64,000 bases of DNA from Trueperaceae bacterium (lineage in GTDB: Bacteria > Deinococcota > Deinococci > Deinococcales > Trueperaceae), in NCBI GenBank assembly GCA_034520945.1, contig JAXHNB010000010.1, forward strand, positions 1 to 64,000. The letters are read 5' to 3'. The notes below the pieces were generated by a model that did no database searches, was not told the DNA's origin, and was given only the letters and a program-made list of their open reading frames with translations. Shown here in pieces: positions 1-11,949 of this stretch. The position numbers and the translations under genes are program-made. How positions within the stretch are numbered: the stretch's first letter is position 1; each line of letters starts with the position of its first letter.

Positions 1-234
1 CGGCTTGCCCGCGTTGCCGATCCTGCCCGTGGTAGGCGTGAACCATGGATACCGAATCGAACCGCGATGCTTTCCTATGGGCGGCGCTCGGCTACGTTCG
101 CGGTACGCAACCGGCCGTGTGACGGCCTCCGACACGTCACGACCACGCGTCGCCGGGCTGCATGCCAAGGGCATGCCACGGTCAAACGATCGGCTCGATC
201 GCGGCCGCCCGGAGCATCGGGCTCCGCGCCCCGG

Positions 235-1593
235 TCATTCCTCGCGGGCAGGATCCTCGTTCGTTGCGTACCCACCCGCCAACTCGTCCGCGATCCGCCG
301 CCGCTCGGCCCGGCTGCGCTTGCTGTAGCGCCGCGTGGTCTGCAGGTTGGCGTGGCGTAGCAGGTCGGCGGCGGCGTCGATGCCGTAACGGCGGGTCACT
401 TCGGTGCCGGCGGTGTGGCGGAGGCCGTGCACCTCGCGGCCGGTGTAGCGCACGCCGGCGCGGCCGCAGAGGTCGCGCAGGCGAATGCGGGCGCGGGCCG
501 GGCCGAAGCCCAGCACGCGGGCGCCCGGGTCGCACGATTCGGGGCGGATGGCCTGCAACGCGTCCAGCAGGGCGCCGGCGGCGGGCACGTCGCGAATGCG
601 GCCGCCCTTGCCGACCACGCCGACCAGCAGACCGCGTTCCAGATCGACCTGGCCCCAGGTGAGGTGCGTCGCTTCGGCGTTGCGGAGGCCGCCGGTGGCG
701 CACAACTGCACGAAGGCGGCGTCGATCGGGCCGGCGGCGCGCAGCAGGCGGCCGACCTCGGCGGCGCTGTAGGCCTCGCGCTTGTCCTCGGGCGCGGCCG
801 GGTCGGTGGGGGCGGCCAGGTCCCGGAACGGGTCGGCGTCGGTGGCGCCGACGTGGCGGAGGGCGCGGTAGAGCGCCTTGCCGGCCGCCAGGCGCACCGC
901 GACGGTGGAGGCGGCCAGCGGGCCGCTCAGCTCGCGGCCGCGGACGGTGCGGGGCACGCCGTCGCTCTCCAGGCGGATCAGCCACACCGCGCCGGCGTCG
1001 GGCGAGGGGTGCAGCAGGTTCTCACTGGGCCAGGCGGCCACCAGGTCGTGCACGCCGCGGCGGTAGGCGGCGCGGGTGCGGTCGCTGAGGCCGGCGCGCT
1101 TCTTGCCGCGGGTGGCCAGCACGTAGTGCGTGACCTCCCACAGCGCCCCCGGGTCGCGTTCGTTCGCGGCGCGGACGGCGCGGATGCGGCGCTGTTCGGG
1201 CGTGAGGCGCGCCCAGCGGACGGCGGTGTCGACGGCGTCGTCGCGGCGGACCTGCAGGTCGGTGGCGGCGCTGAGCTGGACCTCGCCGCTGGCGGCGTGC
1301 TGCACCAGCGCGTCGATGCCGCTGCGGAACAGGGTGTGGGCCCGGACACGGCTGACGCCGAAGCGCCGCGCGATGGCGGCGAGGGACTCCGGTTCGGCGC
1401 CTGCGCCCAGGGCGCGCTCCAGCGTGTCGCGGCGGCGGCGCTCCAGCCGGGGGCCGAAGGCGCGCAGCAGCGTCAGCGCGGCGGCCAGGCGCCCAGGGGC
1501 GGCCAGCACTTCACGGGCGCTGCAGGCGCTGCGGTCCGGGCGCAGCAGCGTGAGGGCCAGTTCGTGGGCCGAGGTGCCGGCGTCGGAATCCAT
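235..1593 (-). CDS. Tyrosine recombinase/integrase (XerC/D-like, Deinococcus type) with N-terminal sigma70-region-4-like HTH extension
   Basis: Catalytic set intact: GLRNAEA (R), GKGGR (K), HGLRHT (HxxR), LRHANLQTTRRY (H...Y). N-terminal ESLAAIARRFGVSRVRAHTL resembles the sigma4 HTH. TAACAT -10 lies 6 nt before the ATG. Confidence 0.9.
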   Translation of the reverse strand: MDSDAGTSAHELALTLLRPDRSACSAREVLAAPGRLAAALTLLRAFGPRLERRRRDTLERALGAGAEPESLAAIARRFGVSRVRAHTLFRSGIDALVQHAASGEVQLSAATDLQVRRDDAVDTAVRWARLTPEQRRIRAVRAANERDPGALWEVTHYVLATRGKKRAGLSDRTRAAYRRGVHDLVAAWPSENLLHPSPDAGAVWLIRLESDGVPRTVRGRELSGPLAASTVAVRLAAGKALYRALRHVGATDADPFRDLAAPTDPAAPEDKREAYSAAEVGRLLRAAGPIDAAFVQLCATGGLRNAEATHLTWGQVDLERGLLVGVVGKGGRIRDVPAAGALLDALQAIRPESCDPGARVLGFGPARARIRLRDLCGRAGVRYTGREVHGLRHTAGTEVTRRYGIDAAADLLRHANLQTTRRYSKRSRAERRRIADELAGGYATNEDPAREE

Positions 1594-1600
1594 GGAGGCA

Positions 1601-1643
1601 TGTTAACCCTATAGCGACAAGAGACATTATCGAATCGTTAACA
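1601..1643. promoter_or_regulatory. Candidate tyrosine-recombinase core site overlapping the recombinase promoter
   Basis: AT-rich patch. CGACAA-gagaca-TTATCG (1615-1632) is an inverted repeat with 1 mismatch and a 6-bp spacer, bracketed by TGTTAAC (1601-1607) and GTTAACA (1637-1643). Confidence 0.55.
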
Positions 1644-1720
1644 CGAACGACTTCGCTCGTGCCGCCCCGCGCGCGCCCGCGTTCGGGCCACGACGTCCCG
1701 CGGGGCCGCTTCGCCGGCGT

Positions 1721-1749
1721 CGGCATCATGATGCAGCATCATGATGCCG
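1721..1749. repeat. Perfect 14-bp-arm palindrome made of two tandem 12-bp palindromes GCATCATGATGC
   Basis: CGGCATCATGATGC-A-GCATCATGATGCCG read directly. Confidence 0.9.
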
Positions 1750-1900
1750 CGACGCGAAAGCTTCGCTCCGCCGAGCCGACATCGGCCGCGCCACGCCGAG
1801 CCGCCGTCAGCGGTCCGGCCGCGCAGGTCCGACCGAACAACGCTACGCGACCCGAGCCAGCGCTACGCGATCTGGCGCCTGCGGCGTGCGCCACGCCACG

Positions 1901-1932
1901 ACGAGCGCCCCGCTGGACGGCGGGGCGCTCGT
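1901..1932. terminator. GC-rich hairpin downstream of cupredoxin gene (terminator-like)
   Basis: ACGAGCGCCCCGC-tggacg-GCGGGGCGCTCGT, 13-bp stem, no U tract. Confidence 0.5.
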
Positions 1933-1968
1933 GCCGCTGTCGCTAGCTGTGCCTCCAGCGCCGCAGCG

Positions 1969-2454
1969 TCACTCGATCACGAACGGTGCCTTCATGCCGG
2001 CCTCGTAGTGGCCGGGCACGAAGCAGGCAATCTCCCAGGTCCCGATCAGCTCGGAAGGCACGGTCACGTGGATCGTCACCGACTCGCCCTCCTCGAGCTC
2101 GATCTCGATCAGGCCGCTGGTACCGACCTCCCAGTCGTCGCCGACGACATCGACGTCGACGGCGTCGAGCAGGTTCGTCTCGTAGCCGTCGGGAGCGCCG
2201 TCGACCATGACGAGGTCGCGGCCGACGAGCACCTCGTGCTCCATCGTGCCGACGTTGGCGAACACGAACTCGTATGGTCGTCCTGCTTCCAGGACGATCG
2301 CTTCGTTCTGCTCCTGACCCTCGATCTGGAAGTAGTACTCGCCCATCTCTATGCGCACCACCGTCCGCTCCGACTCCTGGGCGAACGCCGCCGAGCCCGC
2401 AAGCATCATCACGACCACAACCAAAACGGTTCCGAGGGATCTGCGTACTAGCAT
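1969..2454 (-). CDS. Secreted cupredoxin (plastocyanin/azurin-like blue copper protein)
   Basis: Signal peptide ending AFA-Q; type-1 Cu ligands H (MEHEV) and C-x-x-P-G-H-x-x-x-G-M; RBS GGAGAGAGGA before ATG 2454. Confidence 0.85.
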   Translation of the reverse strand: MLVRRSLGTVLVVVVMMLAGSAAFAQESERTVVRIEMGEYYFQIEGQEQNEAIVLEAGRPYEFVFANVGTMEHEVLVGRDLVMVDGAPDGYETNLLDAVDVDVVGDDWEVGTSGLIEIELEEGESVTIHVTVPSELIGTWEIACFVPGHYEAGMKAPFVIE

Positions 2455-2619
2455 GCCGTATCCTCTCTCCGGCAACTCTCCGCCCAGCTGGAACTCGGCG
2501 ACCACGCGCGAGCGTACCGGTCGCCGCCTCGACGTGTCAACGGCCATGGGGACGTAGCTCTTCGTCATTCTTGGTGGTGGTTGAGGGGTGCGCGCTGTCG
2601 AAGTTGGGCGCATGCCGGG

Positions 2620-2866
2620 ATCGAAGGTTTCCCGTCCTTGCGGCCAACGACGGATACGGGTGCGGGGCTTCGCGCGCTCAGCGCCCCGTCTGTGTGGTCA
2701 GAGGCACGACCACGAGGGTAGGAAAGCGGGACCGACCGAGCAGTTCCGGAAGGCCGACCACCACTGCAGGCCTGCGGATCTCCTGCTCGTGACCGGAAGG
2801 TCTGCTTCGAGGCAACGAAGCGAGGAGTACGTCGCCCCGACGCGGCGGATCAGGATTCCTCGCCAC
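2620..2866 (-). pseudogene. PemK/MazF-family toxin, disrupted
   Basis: RRGDVLLASLP...GHEQ..RRPAVVV...VVVPLTT is the PemK N-terminal signature. In-frame TGA at 2680-2678 is followed by PemK-like AREAPHPYPSL...GNL, then similarity ends. Confidence 0.75.
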
Positions 2867-3101
2867 CGACCCACCCACGAATAGGGTCGTAGCGCAACGG
2901 CTCGCCAAGCTCCTCGGGATCGAGCCGCCCGTGCGCATCGGCTTCGAGCGGAGGTGCCAGCGAGGCGTCGTGCCACGACCGCAGGTCATCAGACGCCGAC
3001 AAGGGCTCTTCACGCTCGCCGCCCATGGCCCTCGCCAAGGTACGGACCGAGATGCCACGGGACCGAAGAAACGCTCGGAGCCGCCAAACGACGCGCATCA
3101 T
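2850..3101 (-). CDS. Putative antitoxin (HTH-like N-terminus, acidic C-terminus), possibly internally deleted
   Basis: 83 aa MMRVVWRLRAFLRSRGISVRTLARAMG...; overlaps the toxin start; TACGAT -10 lies 6 nt before the ATG. Confidence 0.6.
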   Translation of the reverse strand: MMRVVWRLRAFLRSRGISVRTLARAMGGEREEPLSASDDLRSWHDASLAPPLEADAHGRLDPEELGEPLRYDPIRGWVGGEES

Positions 3102-3233
3102 GGATGAATCGTATCGCTTGGGGGCATGCCGCGCCACGTTCCTCCCCGCGCGTCCGAGCGCCGCCCGCGGCGTGAGGGATGCCATTGACGCCCGCGTGCG
3201 GCCGCGCGTACGCTCCAGTCCGAGGAGGCACAT

Positions 3234-3593
3234 GTGAAGCGTCTTGCCTTGAGTTCGTTGCTGGTGGCGGGGGTCCTGGTGGCCTGTGCGCCGCAGGCCA
3301 CGGTCATGAACCACGTCGTCCCGAGCCTGATCTCGGTGCAACTGCCGCAGGACGACGGCGAACCGATCCGCCTCGACGGCCGCTACTTCGGGGACGGGCA
3401 GGACGGCCAGGCCGACGACAGCTACGTCGTGATCGGCGCACGCGGCGACTGCACCGGCGGCGTCGAGCTCCAGGCCGACACCTGGAGCGCCAACCGCATC
3501 ACCTTCCGCGATCCCGGTGGGGTCGGCTCGGGTTTCGTGTGCGTGGTGGCGAATGGTGTCACCAGCAACGGCTTGCCGCTCGACCTGAACTGA
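3234..3593 (+). CDS. Small lipoprotein with IPT/TIG-like beta domain
   Basis: RBS GAGGAGG; lipobox LVAC; G-x-x-F-G and W-S-x-x-x-I motifs. Confidence 0.7.
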   Translation: MKRLALSSLLVAGVLVACAPQATVMNHVVPSLISVQLPQDDGEPIRLDGRYFGDGQDGQADDSYVVIGARGDCTGGVELQADTWSANRITFRDPGGVGSGFVCVVANGVTSNGLPLDLN

Positions 3594-4769: not shown

Positions 4770-6026
4770 ATGCGCGTTCGAGCCGTGAAAGGCACCTATG
4801 ACGTCCTGCCCGAACGCCAGCCGGTCTGGCGCCACCTGCGCGGCACGGTGGAGCGGGTTCTCGGCCGCGCCGGCGTGCGCGAGATCGTGACGCCCGTGTT
4901 CGAGCACAGCGACGTGTTCGACCGGTCGGTGGGCGACTCCGCCGACCTGGTGGTCCAGAAGGAGATGTACCGCTTCGAGGACCGGGGCGGGCGCAGCCTG
5001 ACCCTGCGGCCCGAGTTCACGGCCGGCGTGCTGCGCGCCTTCGTCGACCACGGCATGCACACCCGGCCCACGCCGGTCAAGCTGTGGAGCCTGGGGCCGG
5101 CGTTTCGCGCCGAGAACGTCCAACGCGGACGCTACCGGCAGTTCCACCAGGTCAACTGCGAGTTCCTGGGCTTGCCGGGGCCGCTGATCGACGCGGAGGC
5201 GATCGCGTTGCTGCACGACCTGCTGGCCGCCCTCGGCCTGTCCGACCTGCGCGTCGCCCTCGGCAGCGTCGGCGACCCCGAGGATCGCGAGGCGTACAAC
5301 GCCTACCTGCGCGAGGCGTTGACGCCCGTGGCGGATGAACTTAGCGAGGCCAGCCGGGCGCGGCTGCGCCTGAACCCGATGCGGGTGCTGGACAGCAAGG
5401 AGGCACGCGACCAGGAGCTGCTGGCCGGCCTGGACAAGCCCTTGGACCGCTTGGGCGACGCGGCCCGGGCGCACCTCGACGCCGTGGCCGCCACCCTGGA
5501 CGCCTGGGGCATCGCCTACGAGCTGGCGCCCGACATCGTGCGGGGCCTCGACTACTACCGGCGCACCGCCTTCGAGATCCACGCCGAGGGGATCGGCGCG
5601 CAGTCGGCCTTGGCGGGCGGCGGGCGCTACGACGGGCTCGTCGCGGCGCTGGGCGGCCCCCCCACCCCCGGCATCGGCTGGGCGGTCGGCGTCGAGCGGG
5701 TTCTGGATGCGCTGGACGCGGCCGGCGCGCTGCCGGGTCCGCCCGCCGGGCCGGACCTGTTCCTGGTGCCGATGGACGACCCCGCCGTGGCCGAGGCCGC
5801 CACGCTGGCGCGGGAGCTCCGCGGCACGCTGCACGTCGAGCACGCCTACGCGCGGCGCGCGCCCGGCAAGGGCCTGCGCGACGCCGACCGCGCCGGCGCC
5901 CGGTACGCCGCCCTGCGGGGCGAGCGCGAGCGCGAACGCGGCGCGTGGACCCTGAAGCACCTGGCCCGCGGGGACCAGCGCGAAGTCGAGCAGGACGCGC
6001 TGGCCGCGGCCGTTCGGGAGGAGTGA
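4770..6026 (+). CDS. hisS: Histidine--tRNA ligase
   Basis: LRPEFTA, GRYRQFHQ, RGLDYY, GGGRYDGL; leaderless -10 TATGCT (4755-4760), so the start may be GTG 4767. Confidence 0.98.
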   Translation: MRVRAVKGTYDVLPERQPVWRHLRGTVERVLGRAGVREIVTPVFEHSDVFDRSVGDSADLVVQKEMYRFEDRGGRSLTLRPEFTAGVLRAFVDHGMHTRPTPVKLWSLGPAFRAENVQRGRYRQFHQVNCEFLGLPGPLIDAEAIALLHDLLAALGLSDLRVALGSVGDPEDREAYNAYLREALTPVADELSEASRARLRLNPMRVLDSKEARDQELLAGLDKPLDRLGDAARAHLDAVAATLDAWGIAYELAPDIVRGLDYYRRTAFEIHAEGIGAQSALAGGGRYDGLVAALGGPPTPGIGWAVGVERVLDALDAAGALPGPPAGPDLFLVPMDDPAVAEAATLARELRGTLHVEHAYARRAPGKGLRDADRAGARYAALRGERERERGAWTLKHLARGDQREVEQDALAAAVREE

Positions 6027-6028
6027 GC

Positions 6029-7821
<1,793 letters not shown>

Positions 7822-7825
<4 letters not shown>

Positions 7826-8631
7826 TTCCGCTGGTGCTCCTGGACCTGGACGGCACGCTGATCGGCGAGGGCGGGACGGTGCGGCCGTGCGTGTGGGACG
7901 CTGCCGCGGCGGCGCGCAACGCCGGCGTGCGCTTGGCGGTCTGCACCGGCCGGCCCGGCTTCGGGATCGCCGCCCGCGTGGCGCGGGAGCTGGACCCCGA
8001 CACGCCGCACATCTTCCAGAACGGGGCGCAGGTCATCTACATCGACGGCGACACCGTCCAGGTGAGCGCCCTGCGCCAGAGGTCGACGGAGCGCCTGGTG
8101 CGGCACGCCCGCGAGCGTGGACTGGTGCTCGAGCTGTACACGCCCGACGCCCTCTACGTCGAGCGTCGCACCGAGATCAGCACCGCCCACGCCAAGATGA
8201 TCGGGGTGAACGCGATCGTGCGGGACCTCGCGGGGGTGGCGGCGGACGAACCGGTGGTGCGGGCCCAGTGGGTGGTCGGGCACGACCGCATCGACGAGGC
8301 GTTGGAGATCGAGGTCGACGGCGTCGACGCGGGCGTCGCCACCAGCCCCGCGCTGAAGGACACCTACTTCGTCAGCCTGACGCGTACCGGCGTCAGCAAG
8401 GGCAGCGCCGCCACGCTGTTGTGCAAGCGGCTGGAGATCGACCCGGCCCACGCGATGGCGGTCGGGGACAGCCTCGGCGACGCCTCGATGCTGGACGCCG
8501 TCGGGCACCCGCGCGTGATGGGCGATGCGCCGGCCGAGATGTTGGCGCGCTACCCGCATCATCTCGGCACGACCGAGACCTGTGGCGCGGCTGCGGCGTT
8601 GGAGGAGGCGGTCCGCGCGCGGCGGCGCTGA
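7822..8631 (+). CDS. Cof-type HAD-IIB hydrolase
   Basis: DLDGTL, CTGR, NGA, VSKG, GDSLGD motifs; ATGA overlap with aspS. Confidence 0.9.
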
Positions 8632-8670
8632 GGGGCGGGCCTGCGGGGCGGCGTTGGTACACTTCGCGCC

Positions 8671-9972
8671 ATGGACGCCCCCACCGCCATCGCAGATCTT
8701 CCCGCTTCGCTGGGCCGCCCCGTCCGCGTGGAGGGGTGGCTGACCGGCCTCCGCTCCAGCGGCAAGATCGCCTTTCTGCAGCTCCGGGACGGCAGCGGCT
8801 TCGTGCAGGCGGTGCTGCCGGCCGACGCCGTGGACGAGGCGACCTTCCAACAGGCGCGGCGCTTGTCGCAGGAGTCGGCGCTGCGCGTCATCGGCGAGGT
8901 GTCGGAGGACCGCCGCGCCCCCAGCGGCGTCGAGATCCAGGTGCACGGACTGGAGGTCGTGGCGGAGGGCGGCGCGTACCCCATCACCCCCAAGGAGCAC
9001 GGCGTCGACTTCCTGTTCGAGCATCGGCACCTGCACCTTCGCCACAAGGGACCGTGGGCGATGATGCGGGTGCGGGACACGATCGAGCGCGCCATCCACG
9101 ACTTCTTCGCCGAGCGGGGCTTCCTTCGCTTCGACACGCCCCTGTTCATGCCGACCGCCGTCGAGGGCACCACCAACCTGTTCTCCATCGACCTGTTCGG
9201 CGAAGGCTCCGCCTACCTGGCGCAGTCCGGGCAGTTGTACGCGGAGGCGGGCGCGTTGGCGTTCGGCAAGGTCTACACCTTCGGGCCGACCTTCCGTGCC
9301 GAGAAGAGCAAGACACGGCGGCACCTGCTGGAGTTCTGGATGGTGGAACCCGAGGTCGCCTGGCTGGACCACGACGGCAACGTCGCGCTGCAGGAGGCGT
9401 TCGTGGCCTACCTGGCGGGCCGCGTGCTGGAGGAGCGACGCCCCGAGCTCGACATGTTGGGCCGCGACCCCGCCGCGCTGGAGACGACGGCGGGCGGCGG
9501 GTTCGCCCGCATCAGCTACGACCGGGCGCTGGAGCTGCTGGCCGCGGCCGGGCACGAGCTCGCCTGGGGCGACGACTTCGGCGCCCCCCACGAGACCCTC
9601 CTGGGCGACGCCTTCGGGCGCCCGGTGTTCGTGGAGGCGTGGCCGGCCGAGGCGAAGGCGTTCTACATGGAGCCGTACCCAGATGATCCCACCCGCTCGA
9701 AGTGCGCCGACCTGATCGCGCCGGAAGGGTACGGCGAGATCATCGGCGGTTCGGAACGCATTCACGACCCGGCGCTGCTGGAGGCGCGCATCGAGGCCCA
9801 CGGGTTGCCGCGTGACGCGTTCGCCTGGTACCTCGACCTTCGGCGCCACGGCAGCGTGCCGCACAGCGGCTTCGGCATGGGCCTGGAGCGGCTCCTCGCC
9901 TGGTTCACCGGCGCGCAGCACCTCCGCGAGGTGGTGCCGTTCCCGCGCATGCTGACGCGCATGTACCCCTGA
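8671..9972 (+). CDS. asnS: Asparagine--tRNA ligase
   Basis: [62 protein letters not shown]; TGgTACACT 7 nt before ATG. Confidence 0.96.
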
Positions 9973-10000
9973 GCGATCCCGGGACGCGCACGCGTGGGCG

Positions 10001-10597
10001 TCAATCCAGGGCGGAGGGGGCGGCCAGGTGGGACGGCCACGGCCTGCCGGCACGTCCTTCGCGCAGGTAGGCGGTCCGCTCGATCCCCTGCTCCAGGAGG
10101 GTGCGCTCCAGTGAGCCCAGGATCTGTCGTTCCTGCGCGACGTCCAGCGGCGCGTCGTGCGCCGGGAGGTCCAGGACGGCGGCGGGGCGGCGTTCCACCT
10201 CGAGGGCGAACACCTGCGGACTCGGGAGGTCCGGCGGCCACGTCCCCTCCTCCACCATCACCGTGCGCACCGCGTCGACCAGCGCCTGCAGGCGCGCCCC
10301 TTCCCCTCCGGCATCGACCACCTCCCGGCGGACGGGGCGCGCCGCTCCGTTCTCGTCCAGGACGTAGACCGTGGCTTCGGTGCGCGGCGGGTTTTCCGGT
10401 GCCTCCGCCGGTACGCGGAGGTCCGGCACCTCGGCCGGGGGTCGGGGCGGCTCGGCGCGCAGGAAGGTCACGCCGGTCACCAGGACGGCCAGGAGCGGCA
10501 GGATCACCTGAGGCGACGCCCAGTGAATGCCGCCGGGTCCGGGCGGCGTCGGCCCGCCCTGCGCGTCGCGCCGGGCGGGGTCCGAGTCGGACCTCAC
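10001..10597 (-). CDS. Membrane-anchored GerMN-like domain protein
   Basis: One TM segment, then AVLDLP...ERQILGSLERTL; GTGA overlap with the amidase stop. Confidence 0.55.
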   Translation of the reverse strand: MRSDSDPARRDAQGGPTPPGPGGIHWASPQVILPLLAVLVTGVTFLRAEPPRPPAEVPDLRVPAEAPENPPRTEATVYVLDENGAARPVRREVVDAGGEGARLQALVDAVRTVMVEEGTWPPDLPSPQVFALEVERRPAAVLDLPAHDAPLDVAQERQILGSLERTLLEQGIERTAYLREGRAGRPWPSHLAAPSALD

Positions 10598-11949
10598 TGC
10601 GCCCCCGAGGCGGCGCTGCGCACGGCGGCCGCCAGCACCTCCGGCAGGTCCGGATCGCGAAGGTCGTCCAGGGCGAACTCCAGCAGCACGCCCCGCCCCG
10701 CCGCTCCCTCCAGCAGCGCCAGCGGTGCGGCCTCCACCTCGCCGGCGCGGTAGCCGCCGACCTGGAACAACGCCGTGGCGATGGCGCGGCCGTAGCGGCG
10801 GCCCAATTCCAGGTCGGGCACCAGGCCCAGCAGGATGCGGCGGCGCAGTTCGTCCTCCACGCCCGCATTCAGCGCTTCGCGCGCGTTGCGGCGGATCGCA
10901 GCGCGCATCACCGCCTCTTCGGCGGCCTCGCCCAGCACCCACACGCGCACCTCGCCGCTGGGGAGGTCGGCGGCGTGCAGCGACAGGAACAGGTCGGCGT
11001 CGGCCGCGGCCGAGAGGCGTTGGGCGTGCGGCACGTCCCCGGCCGCCTGCCGGGTGAGACGGACCGAGACGCCCTCGCGCTCCAGGCGTTCGGCCACCGC
11101 GCGCGCCAACGACAGGGTCGCTTCGCCCTCGCCCGGCAGGCCGCTGCCCGCCCCGTGCCCGGGGTCGAGCACCACGCTCAGATCGGTCTCGCCTCGTGGT
11201 TCGTCCGGCGTGTCGCTGGCGGGTTGGACCCGGATGCGCACCTCGCTGCCGCGGCCGGCCGCCAAGGTCGTCACCTCGAGGGTCGCACCGGGCGCGTCGA
11301 TGCGGACGCGGACCCCTTGACCCGCCGGGATCAGGTCGGCGCGGCGGATCCAGGTGCCGGCCAGGCTCTCGGCCTGCGTCAGGCGTGCTCGGCGCAACGT
11401 GATCTCGGTGACGCCGACCGCCGCGTCGTCGAAGCGTTGCCAGGCGACCGGCCCGTCCAGGGAGATTCGGAGCAGGTCGAAGCCGTCGCGGCGTTCCAGC
11501 GTGGCGTCGTTCACGCTCGGGCGGGGCGTGACGATGACCACGGCGTCGCGCTCCGCCAGGTAGGAGATGCTGGCACCGAACGCCCGCACCACCGGCGCGA
11601 CCGGCACCCACACCGCGTCGTCGCCGCGGATGGCGGCCAGGTCACCGACGGGGCTGCCGTCCAGCCGGACGGCGCCCGTGACGCCGGCCTCGTCGCCGAA
11701 GGGTACGACGCCCAGTTGGAGGACGTGCCCGCTGAACAGCAGCGCGACGGTGTCCGACCCGACGGGGGCGGCCAATCGCGCGCCGAGTTCCTCCGCCAGC
11801 CGGTCGGCCGGCGCGTAGCTGTTGCCGGGCACGAGATCGGTCCGCACCTCGCCGGCGGGGCGACCGTCGATGAGCAACGAGGACTGAGCGAACGCCGCGC
11901 CCCACGCAAGGAGACCCGACAGAATGGCGAGGCGCAGCACGGTTCTCAT
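10594..11949 (-). CDS. N-acetylmuramoyl-L-alanine amidase (Amidase_3) with N-terminal accessory domains
   Basis: Signal peptide; VVLDPGHG, RLTR, FLSLHA, VLLE motifs. Confidence 0.85.
   Translation of the reverse strand: MRTVLRLAILSGLLAWGAAFAQSSLLIDGRPAGEVRTDLVPGNSYAPADRLAEELGARLAAPVGSDTVALLFSGHVLQLGVVPFGDEAGVTGAVRLDGSPVGDLAAIRGDDAVWVPVAPVVRAFGASISYLAERDAVVIVTPRPSVNDATLERRDGFDLLRISLDGPVAWQRFDDAAVGVTEITLRRARLTQAESLAGTWIRRADLIPAGQGVRVRIDAPGATLEVTTLAAGRGSEVRIRVQPASDTPDEPRGETDLSVVLDPGHGAGSGLPGEGEATLSLARAVAERLEREGVSVRLTRQAAGDVPHAQRLSAAADADLFLSLHAADLPSGEVRVWVLGEAAEEAVMRAAIRRNAREALNAGVEDELRRRILLGLVPDLELGRRYGRAIATALFQVGGYRAGEVEAAPLALLEGAAGRGVLLEFALDDLRDPDLPEVLAAAVRSAASGAQ

Follow-up and report, generated by a model that had tools for sequence, protein, structure and literature searches.

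The DNA analysed here (the window) comprises 64,000 nucleotides and is the start of contig JAXHNB010000010.1 (C10) of assembly GCA_034520945.1 (G000), a metagenome-assembled genome (MAG) of a Trueperaceae bacterium. On its minus strand lies a gene (235..1593, stop codon TGA at 235-237) for a protein of 452 amino acids (aa), which joins a sigma-70 region-4-like (sigma-4) domain to a tyrosine recombinase. Directly upstream of the start codon is a 45-bp block in which a dif-like site stands between two outward-facing, promoter-like hexamers. The gene was delimited by Pfam matches and homologue alignments, and all its parts are given on the minus strand. Residues 33-102 (1288..1497) form the sigma-4-like domain, as placed by a family profile, Pfam, AlphaFold2 and Foldseek. 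A linker of residues ~103-119 (1237..1287), recognised by its low predicted local distance difference test (pLDDT) values, leads to the core-binding (SAM-like) domain at residues ~120-250 (844..1236), of which residues 167-247 match PF02899 and over which alignments with shorter relatives begin (from ~105-127). The catalytic domain occupies residues ~277-444 (262..765) and contains R304, K329, H389, R392, H414, and Y423; its assignment follows from PF00589, invariant columns, and Foldseek. The PF00589 (Phage_integrase) match spans residues 281-426 and scores 49.1 bits, above the gathering cut-off of 27.1. A preliminary description of this DNA had reported a 452-aa open reading frame (ORF) with intact R-K-HxxR-H-Y residues; the ORF is present, and the six residues are invariant in an alignment of 37 family members. 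A distant fused group carries Q at the H414 position. With the full model as query, Foldseek matched Brujita Int, XerA, and XerD, the recombinase part alone being recognised.

The sigma-4/recombinase ORF is almost certainly a genuine fusion. Its GC content at third codon positions, taken from a near-identical copy on contig C5, is 0.92. Homologues do not all begin near residue 110: after scoring of 8000 candidates, 67 database proteins were found at E ≤ 0.001, and 35 of them span 93-100% of the fusion protein with identities of 60-97%. In many shorter relatives (about 290-350 aa, 36-45% identity), the alignment begins only at about residue 105-127, which argues that the ~110 extra N-terminal residues noted in the preliminary description are a real addition. 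By these alignments, the extension is real, conserved, and translated. One may ask whether assembly or gene calling produced the fusion by joining two ORFs in error, as the window is located at the end of a contig and there is a redundant overlap between C5 and C10. The fusion frame, however, is free of stops in 15 independently assembled genomes and therefore does not stem from a joining error in one of them; it recurs in many metagenome proteins, and contigs from three metagenome studies cross the domain junction (one 1324-base record, for instance, spans 391-1644). We thus regard an artefact as having a negligible chance. The C5 copy, 97% identical, is no paralogue and results from two strain variants having been assembled redundantly: the last 27 kb of C5 (868381-895528) recur in C10:144-28492 at 96-99% identity, and the genes there are counted twice in the MAG, whose contamination estimate is 5.13%.

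The N-terminal domain was compared with sigma factors at the level of sequence and of predicted fold. The peptide that had first been likened to sigma-70 region 4 corresponds to residues 52-96. The fusion protein alone matches Pfam Sigma70_r4 (PF04545) with E 0.2 and 11.6 bits, below the gathering cut-off of 24.1. At E ≤ 0.1, 29 of the 37 family members match this profile, the best with E 1.7e-6, and the distant fused relatives P0070 and P0079 exceed the gathering score with 29.2 and 31.6 bits, respectively. A profile built from 13 N-termini of genome loci found 82 PDB sequences at E ≤ 1; all 60 matches listed are sigma factors, and the best one is the sigma-4 of RpoS (6fi7, E 4.8e-11, profile positions 41-101). 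AlphaFold2 predicts the isolated N-terminus as all-helical with pLDDT above 90 for residues 11-100. Its helices at residues 33-49, 52-62, 71-78, and 82-102 form the four-helix region-4 fold with a helix-turn-helix (HTH), in which SRVRAH (residues 81-86) belongs to the recognition helix. The linker has pLDDT values of 57-63 in the blocks covering 101-120 of the full model and of 38-60 in the domain-only model. The isolated domain is small and gave no Foldseek match at E ≤ 0.001; the top rows are almost all sigma region 4, such as 1ku3 (root mean square deviation of 1.4 Å over 56 columns), and include the sigma-4/-35 DNA complex 1ku7. Family-level Pfam matches, the PDB profile search, and the predicted four-helix fold thus bear out the initial likening, and identify the fusion N-terminus as a true homologue of sigma-70 region 4.

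Pfam detects neither sigma region 2 nor region 3 in the fusion protein, the remainder of which is recombinase. When the N-terminus was compared by pairwise BLASTP with the two SigA-like proteins of the genome, nothing significant emerged; a recent capture from the host sigma factor is therefore unsupported. The genes of these two proteins are full-length, nearly identical in region 4, and located on C6 (about 251-252.6 kb) and C1 (about 135-136.4 kb). The pair may consist of paralogues or reflect the second strain in the MAG. Another fusion of sigma-4 to a DNA-processing enzyme was seen in P0210 (413 aa) and P0098 (578 aa), where Sigma70_r4 is joined to a TnsA-like endonuclease domain.

The whole N-terminal profile detects the fusion in 15 of 364 Deinococcota genomes at E ≤ 1e-19, all of them Trueperaceae from four genera. 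The next-best matches lie near E 3e-9, and in the window's genome these are the two SigA-like genes. (This tally, the presence count within the window's genus, and the scans of 128 genomes described below include the unpublished G090 as one genome.) Among 1.84 billion cluster representatives, about six full-length fused clusters plus fragments were found. The N-terminal alignment, used to scan metagenomes, yielded a single weak locus and no further lineage, its pattern being swamped by sigma factors. Within the window's genus, the gene is present in nine of ten other genomes (G120, 90% complete, is without it), and in most genomes it is the single member of its recombinase clade. Comparison of the neighbourhoods of fused homologues, as had been proposed, revealed smc on one side and hisS-aspS on the other, with variable DNA between. 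Specifically, genus loci with enough flanking sequence have the order smc, convergent recombinase, variable stretch, small TIG-domain lipoprotein gene, hisS, and aspS, and the variable stretch holds GGDEF-EAL, LPG-synthase-like, cupredoxin, or other genes. The recombinase gene is a fixed chromosomal gene in plastic surroundings and is not carried by one island.

The 45-bp block is conserved in all nine sites of the genus, while the flanks on both sides are unalignable; G115 carries a more diverged version. Its centre is a 28-bp dif-like core at 1610..1637 (minus strand), an imperfect palindrome of 11-6-11 layout defined by conservation and uniqueness. The core is composed of the left arm CGATTCGATAA (1627-1637), the 6-bp centre TGTCTC (1621-1626), and the right arm TTGTCGCTATA (1610-1620). 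The distal outer box TTAACA (1638..1643, plus strand) abuts the left arm and reads outward from the core; TTAAC is invariant in 9/9 genus sites. The proximal outer box, also TTAACA and outward (1601..1606, minus strand), lies 3 bp beyond the right arm, from which it is separated by the spacer GGG (1607-1609). It is overlapped by the -10-like hexamer TAACAT at 1600-1605 (minus strand), which, as first described, precedes the ATG beginning at 1593 by six nucleotides (1594-1599); the end of the site is 7 nt from this ATG. The palindrome finder chose GC-rich decoys in five of nine fused loci, and the fused sites were therefore read by eye.

The arms match as inverted repeats at 8 of 11 positions (G113 version, by eye), and 4/6 pairs follow the 7-12/17-22 pairing rule given in the relevant section of PMC3025954, a borderline result. 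The left half of the site, CCGATAATG, agrees letter for letter with the corresponding portion of the Frankia alni dif seed in that source, and the stretch CGCATAATGT of the G116 and G112 sites matches its E. coli dif seed. The ATAA-N6-TTRT signature and the 11-6-11 geometry likewise agree with the dif seeds printed there (PMC3025954). Aside from the C5/C10 redundancy, the assembly contains the 28-mer only once when up to 6 mismatches are allowed, and neither second copies nor half-copies of the site, as in an inversion switch or an att pair, occur in this genome. A 29-mer covering box, arm, and centre was found with ≤ 3 mismatches in 9 of 128 family genomes, all of the window's genus (reversed-pattern control, 0), and once per genome, the duplicates in G000 and G111 stemming from redundant contigs. 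The chromosome hence has a single dif-like site, with a 6-bp centre between two inverted arms of ~11 bp. G117 has an insertion of about 1 kb between block and recombinase (C103, L037 4937-5935), and the site with both boxes is intact. This insertion contains two small plus-strand ORFs (117 and 104 aa) that by eye resemble a HigB/HigA-type toxin-antitoxin pair; the block there keeps the original -10 and ATG, and the recombinase ORF uses a new start.

Relatives that lack the sigma domain (short forms) have sites of the same layout. Of 41 short-form loci, 21 carry a CTGATAA-CTCGTC-TTATCAG-type site and four have other clean 9-6-9 palindromes; with a crude palindrome finder, nothing convincing emerged in the remaining 16. 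The 21 sites align as GT(A/G)AA-AA..CTGATAA-N6-TTATC.G..., followed by 3 nt, TAnnnT, 6 nt, and ATG, as at the fused locus. A 20-mer of the short-form site is present in 38 of the 128 family genomes (reversed control, 1 match); 37 have a single copy and G014 has two, both at contig ends. The 20-mer adjoins the best short-form gene in every case compared. The recombinase ATG of the window has no Shine-Dalgarno sequence, and leaderless mRNAs of Deinococcus typically have a -10 element near the start codon. The recurrence of TAnnnT-6 nt-ATG in 21 relatives supports the leaderless reading of this start. A scan of 1..3300 for the consensus promoter TTGACA-N16-18-TATAAT gave no match. Three identical short-form paralogues were seen in G108 (C1, at 1735247, 1750618, and 2959356) away from the terminus, from which it follows that part of the recombinase subfamily is mobile.

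We expressed the distance between the recombinase gene and dnaA as a fraction of chromosome length, using the best-matching gene in each complete or near-complete chromosome (three lengths are rounded; weaker or multicopy paralogues elsewhere in G108 and G027 were excluded). The gene lies roughly opposite dnaA in all eight chromosomes. The fractions are 0.4998 (G121), 0.490 (G055), and 0.451 (G023) for fused genes, and about 0.51 (G070), 0.473 (G056), 0.4988 (G108), about 0.48 (G027), and about 0.566 (G025) for short forms. In G121, GC skew is positive in nine of ten sampled windows before 1.55 Mb and negative in eight of ten after 1.70 Mb; the cumulative G-C curve, computed over a contiguous 430 kb, peaks at 1.595 Mb, and the gene, at 1.630 Mb, is 35 kb away. 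The placement of xerS at a GC-skew shift point is taken as indicative of function in PMC3025954, in the section that deals with it.

Among solved structures, the family profile is most closely related to XerA (E 1.3e-20), IntI4, XerD, Brujita Int, and XerH. No gene of the window's genome reaches the NCBIfam cut-off for XerC or XerD. Besides the fusion, the tyrosine recombinases of this genome are two phage-type integrases, a low-GC gene next to a transposase, and a 335-aa short-form paralogue on C6, which adjoins a phage-type integrase and has no dif-like site upstream. An FtsK with a gamma domain is encoded in the same genome. The gene thus resembles xerS and xerH in adjoining its own dif-like site, with no second Xer present. 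Taken together, the Xer relatives, the lack of a competing Xer, the FtsK gamma domain, the site, and the position opposite dnaA in relatives lead us to assign the gene as probably the Xer/dif-type recombinase of the Trueperaceae lineage, working as a single-recombinase system that would resolve chromosome dimers. Several observations pull the other way. The protein fails both equivalog models, scoring 56.6 against a cut-off of 335.15 for XerC (TIGR02224) and 33.7 against 329.6 for XerD (TIGR02225); nor is it by sequence a member of XerS (NF003462, 19.6 bits against 267). GC skew in the window's genome is nearly flat around the locus, too flat to place the terminus. The only long contig of the genus, 1.9 Mb in G113, has a weak skew change at 0.55-0.85 Mb with the gene at 0.88 Mb, and the related genomes compared are non-independent samples.

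The same evidence bears on two other views of the locus. The block may be a promoter or operator only, with the recombinase working at other sites or having become mainly a DNA-binding regulator; after all, it abuts the start codon and includes a -10-like hexamer, and autoregulatory palindromes are common. This would leave the fit of the 11-6-11 geometry and of ATAA-N6-TTRT to dif seeds, as well as the invariance of the catalytic residues, unaccounted for. Moreover, the genome holds no second copy or half-site-rich locus, the position opposite dnaA is kept in relatives even where the neighbouring genes differ, and the G117 site is intact though 1 kb from its gene; we therefore consider a mere promoter or operator unlikely. 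Still less probable is that the enzyme serves as the integrase of a mobile genomic island, such as a 12.9-kb segment on C5 with toxin-antitoxin genes and transposase remnants. The DNA on both sides does differ between strains and species, and some members of the subfamily are multicopy, as are the three G108 genes. The gene, however, is present in nine of ten other genomes of the genus; in the loci with sufficient flanking DNA it sits between smc and hisS-aspS, whether island DNA is there or not, and it lies opposite dnaA in 8/8 chromosomes. The site has no second att-like copy and, by Pfam, the protein has no integrase-type arm-binding domain, which makes an island integrase a distinctly improbable reading. 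We accordingly continue with the Xer/dif assignment. The preliminary description had ranked the locus as a candidate for an undescribed system; the core protein is instead probably the Xer-type recombinase of the lineage, placed near the terminus in relatives and paired with a dif-like site, and systems of this kind are known.

Each of the two outer boxes is -35-like, one base off the consensus TTGACA, and they are placed symmetrically and outward, 0 and 3 bp beyond the 11-bp arms. In the 3.47-Mb genome, TTAACA occurs 15 times against 158 expected (about 10-fold depleted), and GTTAAC 16 times against 197 expected from base composition (about 12-fold depleted). This depletion may reflect a restriction system or dinucleotide bias. 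The dif-like site holds the genome's only outward pair of TTAACA 26-40 bp apart. In the window's genus both boxes are fixed as GTTAACA, while the proximal hexamer of the 21 sigma-less loci varies freely within TAnnnT. The distant fused relative G121 has very dissimilar arms, CCCACCTAA-GGCTGA-TTAGGTGGG, with outward TTGACA 2 and 4 bp beyond them.

The recognition helix can be related to the boxes through the known contacts of sigma-70. According to the sections of PMC2613000 used here, the third base of the hexamer (-33) is where substitutions at E585 and R588 alter specificity, and -31 is read by R584; the order of the contact residues was taken from the corresponding part of PMC12262734. Equivalent positions were placed by aligning the motif GV(S/T)R.R... 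with the host SigA. The DNA-contact arginines are kept: R82, equivalent to R584, is nearly invariant and R84, equivalent to R586, is invariant. The E585 and R588 equivalents are V and H in the window's genus, where the third base of the box is A; they are E and R in G121 and G126, where it is G, and E and H in G023, where the box reads TTAACT.

These features make it an even question whether the Xer/dif resolvase carries a sigma-4 domain that reads the flanking boxes. The covariation of helix and box comes from three lineages. Among five fused lineages, both boxes are clear in two (the window's genus and G121), only the proximal one in G126 and G023, and neither in G055, which has G at the R588 equivalent; in G123 the contig stops short of the site. 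In G121, the proximal TTGACA has a TAnnnT hexamer at a distance of 17 bp (by eye) and may be a plain -35 element. The short forms count against box reading, too. Their distal flank is already TTYACA-like without a sigma domain: 10 of the 21 sites match TTGACA/TTAACA at ≥ 5/6 positions at the same offset, and one of the sigma-less sites has TTAACA there, while the position of the proximal box is that of the -10. As the distal flank and the proximal -10 exist in sigma-less relatives, the ancestors of both boxes were not sigma-4 targets, and the boxes may be inherited promoter or extended-arm elements.

These findings about the short forms favour an alternative in which the protein is an Xer/dif resolvase, but its sigma-4 domain only represses the gene's own promoter or binds a protein partner (such as FtsK, an anti-sigma-like factor, or the beta-flap of RNA polymerase). 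In sigma-less relatives, the -10 falls where the proximal box is, and the distal TTYACA-like flank predates the fusion. Besides, sigma region 4 is also a protein-interaction module, and many of the PDB matches are beta-flap tip or WhiB complexes. A role confined to repression or partner binding is hard to reconcile with the retention of the arginines R82 and R84, with two boxes fixed as GTTAACA in the genus where the -10 of 21 sigma-less loci varies freely, and with box and helix varying together. We consider this alternative rather unlikely, though it is the strongest of those raised here.

If the boxes are read by sigma-4, the system may be pictured as follows. The fused recombinase would act alone and resolve chromosome dimers at the adjoining single-copy dif-like site near the terminus. 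In the window's genus and three other Trueperaceae genera, the enzyme has gained the N-terminal sigma-4 HTH domain on a flexible linker of ~18 residues. Two recombinase monomers would occupy the two 11-bp arms around the 6-bp crossover region, and each sigma-4 domain would dock on the outward -35-like hexamer (TTAACA) flanking its arm, extending the recognised site to ~45 bp. Since the proximal box overlaps the gene's -10, recombinase bound there would cover it and repress its own transcription. We hold this full picture, in which box contact, autoregulation, and dimer resolution are predicted steps, to have about an even chance of being right. A bolder form is more tentative, and we would sooner bet against it: a sigma-4 module was reused as the accessory arm of a housekeeping Xer and reads DNA as sigma reads the -35 element, V and H retune recognition from TTGACA to TTAACA, and expression is coupled to site binding. 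The preliminary description had foreseen an extra DNA-binding arm for promoter-like sites, and promoter-like hexamers do flank the site; that the arm reads them is a conjecture. Its further suggestion that recombination is linked to promoter architecture is likewise conjectural; the distal hexamer and the -10 position are already found in sigma-less relatives.

The DNA around the gene varies between strains. A 1.2-kb segment (window 1645-2861) starts right at the distal box's outer edge and is missing from the C5 variant; by metagenome depth, the form without the segment reaches 18-32 against 4-5 for the window's form. Two more junction variants begin at the same position, 1644, in another metagenome study. 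The segment includes a cupredoxin-like ORF (1969..2613, minus strand) with a C-terminal C..PGH....GM motif seen by eye, whose G118 homologue has no Pfam match. At 1710-1758, within the variable segment upstream of the site, is a 49-bp self-complementary stretch with repeated GCATCATGATGC units. On the other side, between smc and the recombinase 3' end, C5 has a segment of 12.9 kb (about 855600-868470 of C5 in G000; L043 1-12470), which is absent in G118, G119, and G112. It encodes a patatin/DUF3376 protein (1036 aa), an AbiEi/AbiEii toxin-antitoxin pair, and a transposase-like fragment, and has ORFs that by eye are Fic-like and Cas2-like, with no Pfam match. Also present is a 286-bp stretch with a single CRISPR-repeat-like sequence, which the window variant lacks. 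Frameshifts appear to affect both smc (in two pieces) and the recombinase (in two blast segments) of the long-read MAG G113 at L034 (G113:C13) 5683-10960, and the G113 database protein P0037 runs into another frame; these frameshifts may be assembly indels instead of real pseudogenes.

The proposed system would be of interest on several counts. A previously unannotated dif-like site and a probable single-Xer system are defined for Trueperaceae, and the site would offer a terminus marker for the mostly uncultured genomes of this family. According to the part of PMC8138268 that classifies tyrosine recombinases, Xer-type enzymes are two-domain 'simple' recombinases, and accessory DNA-binding domains are a hallmark of mobile-element integrases. 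Here a housekeeping Xer appears to have gained an accessory domain independently, from the transcription machinery. The words 'sigma', 'helix-turn-helix', and 'Deinococc' do not occur in the main text of PMC8138268, and a literature search, judged on titles and abstract openings, found no description of a sigma-4/tyrosine-recombinase fusion. Should the boxes be read as proposed, one 45-bp element at the terminus would couple the occupancy of dif to the expression of the recombinase and to the access of RNA polymerase. The family would then provide a compact natural test of the sigma-4/-35 recognition rules outside RNA polymerase, helix residues being compared with hexamer bases. A 45-bp site read by one protein with two DNA-binding modules might, in addition, be attractive as a recombination tool of high specificity.

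Four known systems may be compared with this locus. Like XerS/difSL of streptococci and lactococci and XerH/difH of epsilon-proteobacteria, it would employ one recombinase instead of XerC plus XerD. In these systems the gene lies, as here, beside its own dif site, and near the GC-skew shift point (PMC3025954, in the part describing them), and the target is an asymmetric, imperfect palindrome. Unlike them, the Trueperaceae enzyme has an additional N-terminal sigma-4 domain and a site flanked by -35-like hexamers. With XerC/XerD-dif and the archaeal XerA it shares the architecture of core-binding plus catalytic domains and the RKHRH-Y residues, and these are its nearest solved relatives; the 28-bp core, the 11-6-11 layout, and a left half resembling published dif seeds are further likenesses. 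It differs from them in being a single enzyme whose gene abuts the site, in its N-terminal accessory domain, and in scoring far below the equivalog cut-offs. The Int proteins of lambda and Tn916, 'complex' recombinases in the terms of the section of PMC8138268 concerned, also have an extra N-terminal domain on a linker, which in the present case is predicted to read accessory sequences. The domain here, however, is a sigma-type HTH instead of the arm-binding (AB) fold, and AB families are absent from the Pfam matches of the fusion protein at E ≤ 10; the proposed boxes abut the core instead of lying in distant arms, and the context is chromosomal and probably terminal, not a mobile element. Region 4 of the group 1 and 2 sigma factors (RpoD, RpoS, and SigA) is homologous in sequence and fold across regions 4.1-4.2, with the R584/R586 equivalents kept, but in the recombinase it stands apart from regions 2 and 3 and is joined to an enzyme, and in the window's genus it has V/H at the E585/R588 equivalents. 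In light of these comparisons, the locus is best understood as an Xer/dif system with an unusual added reader domain.

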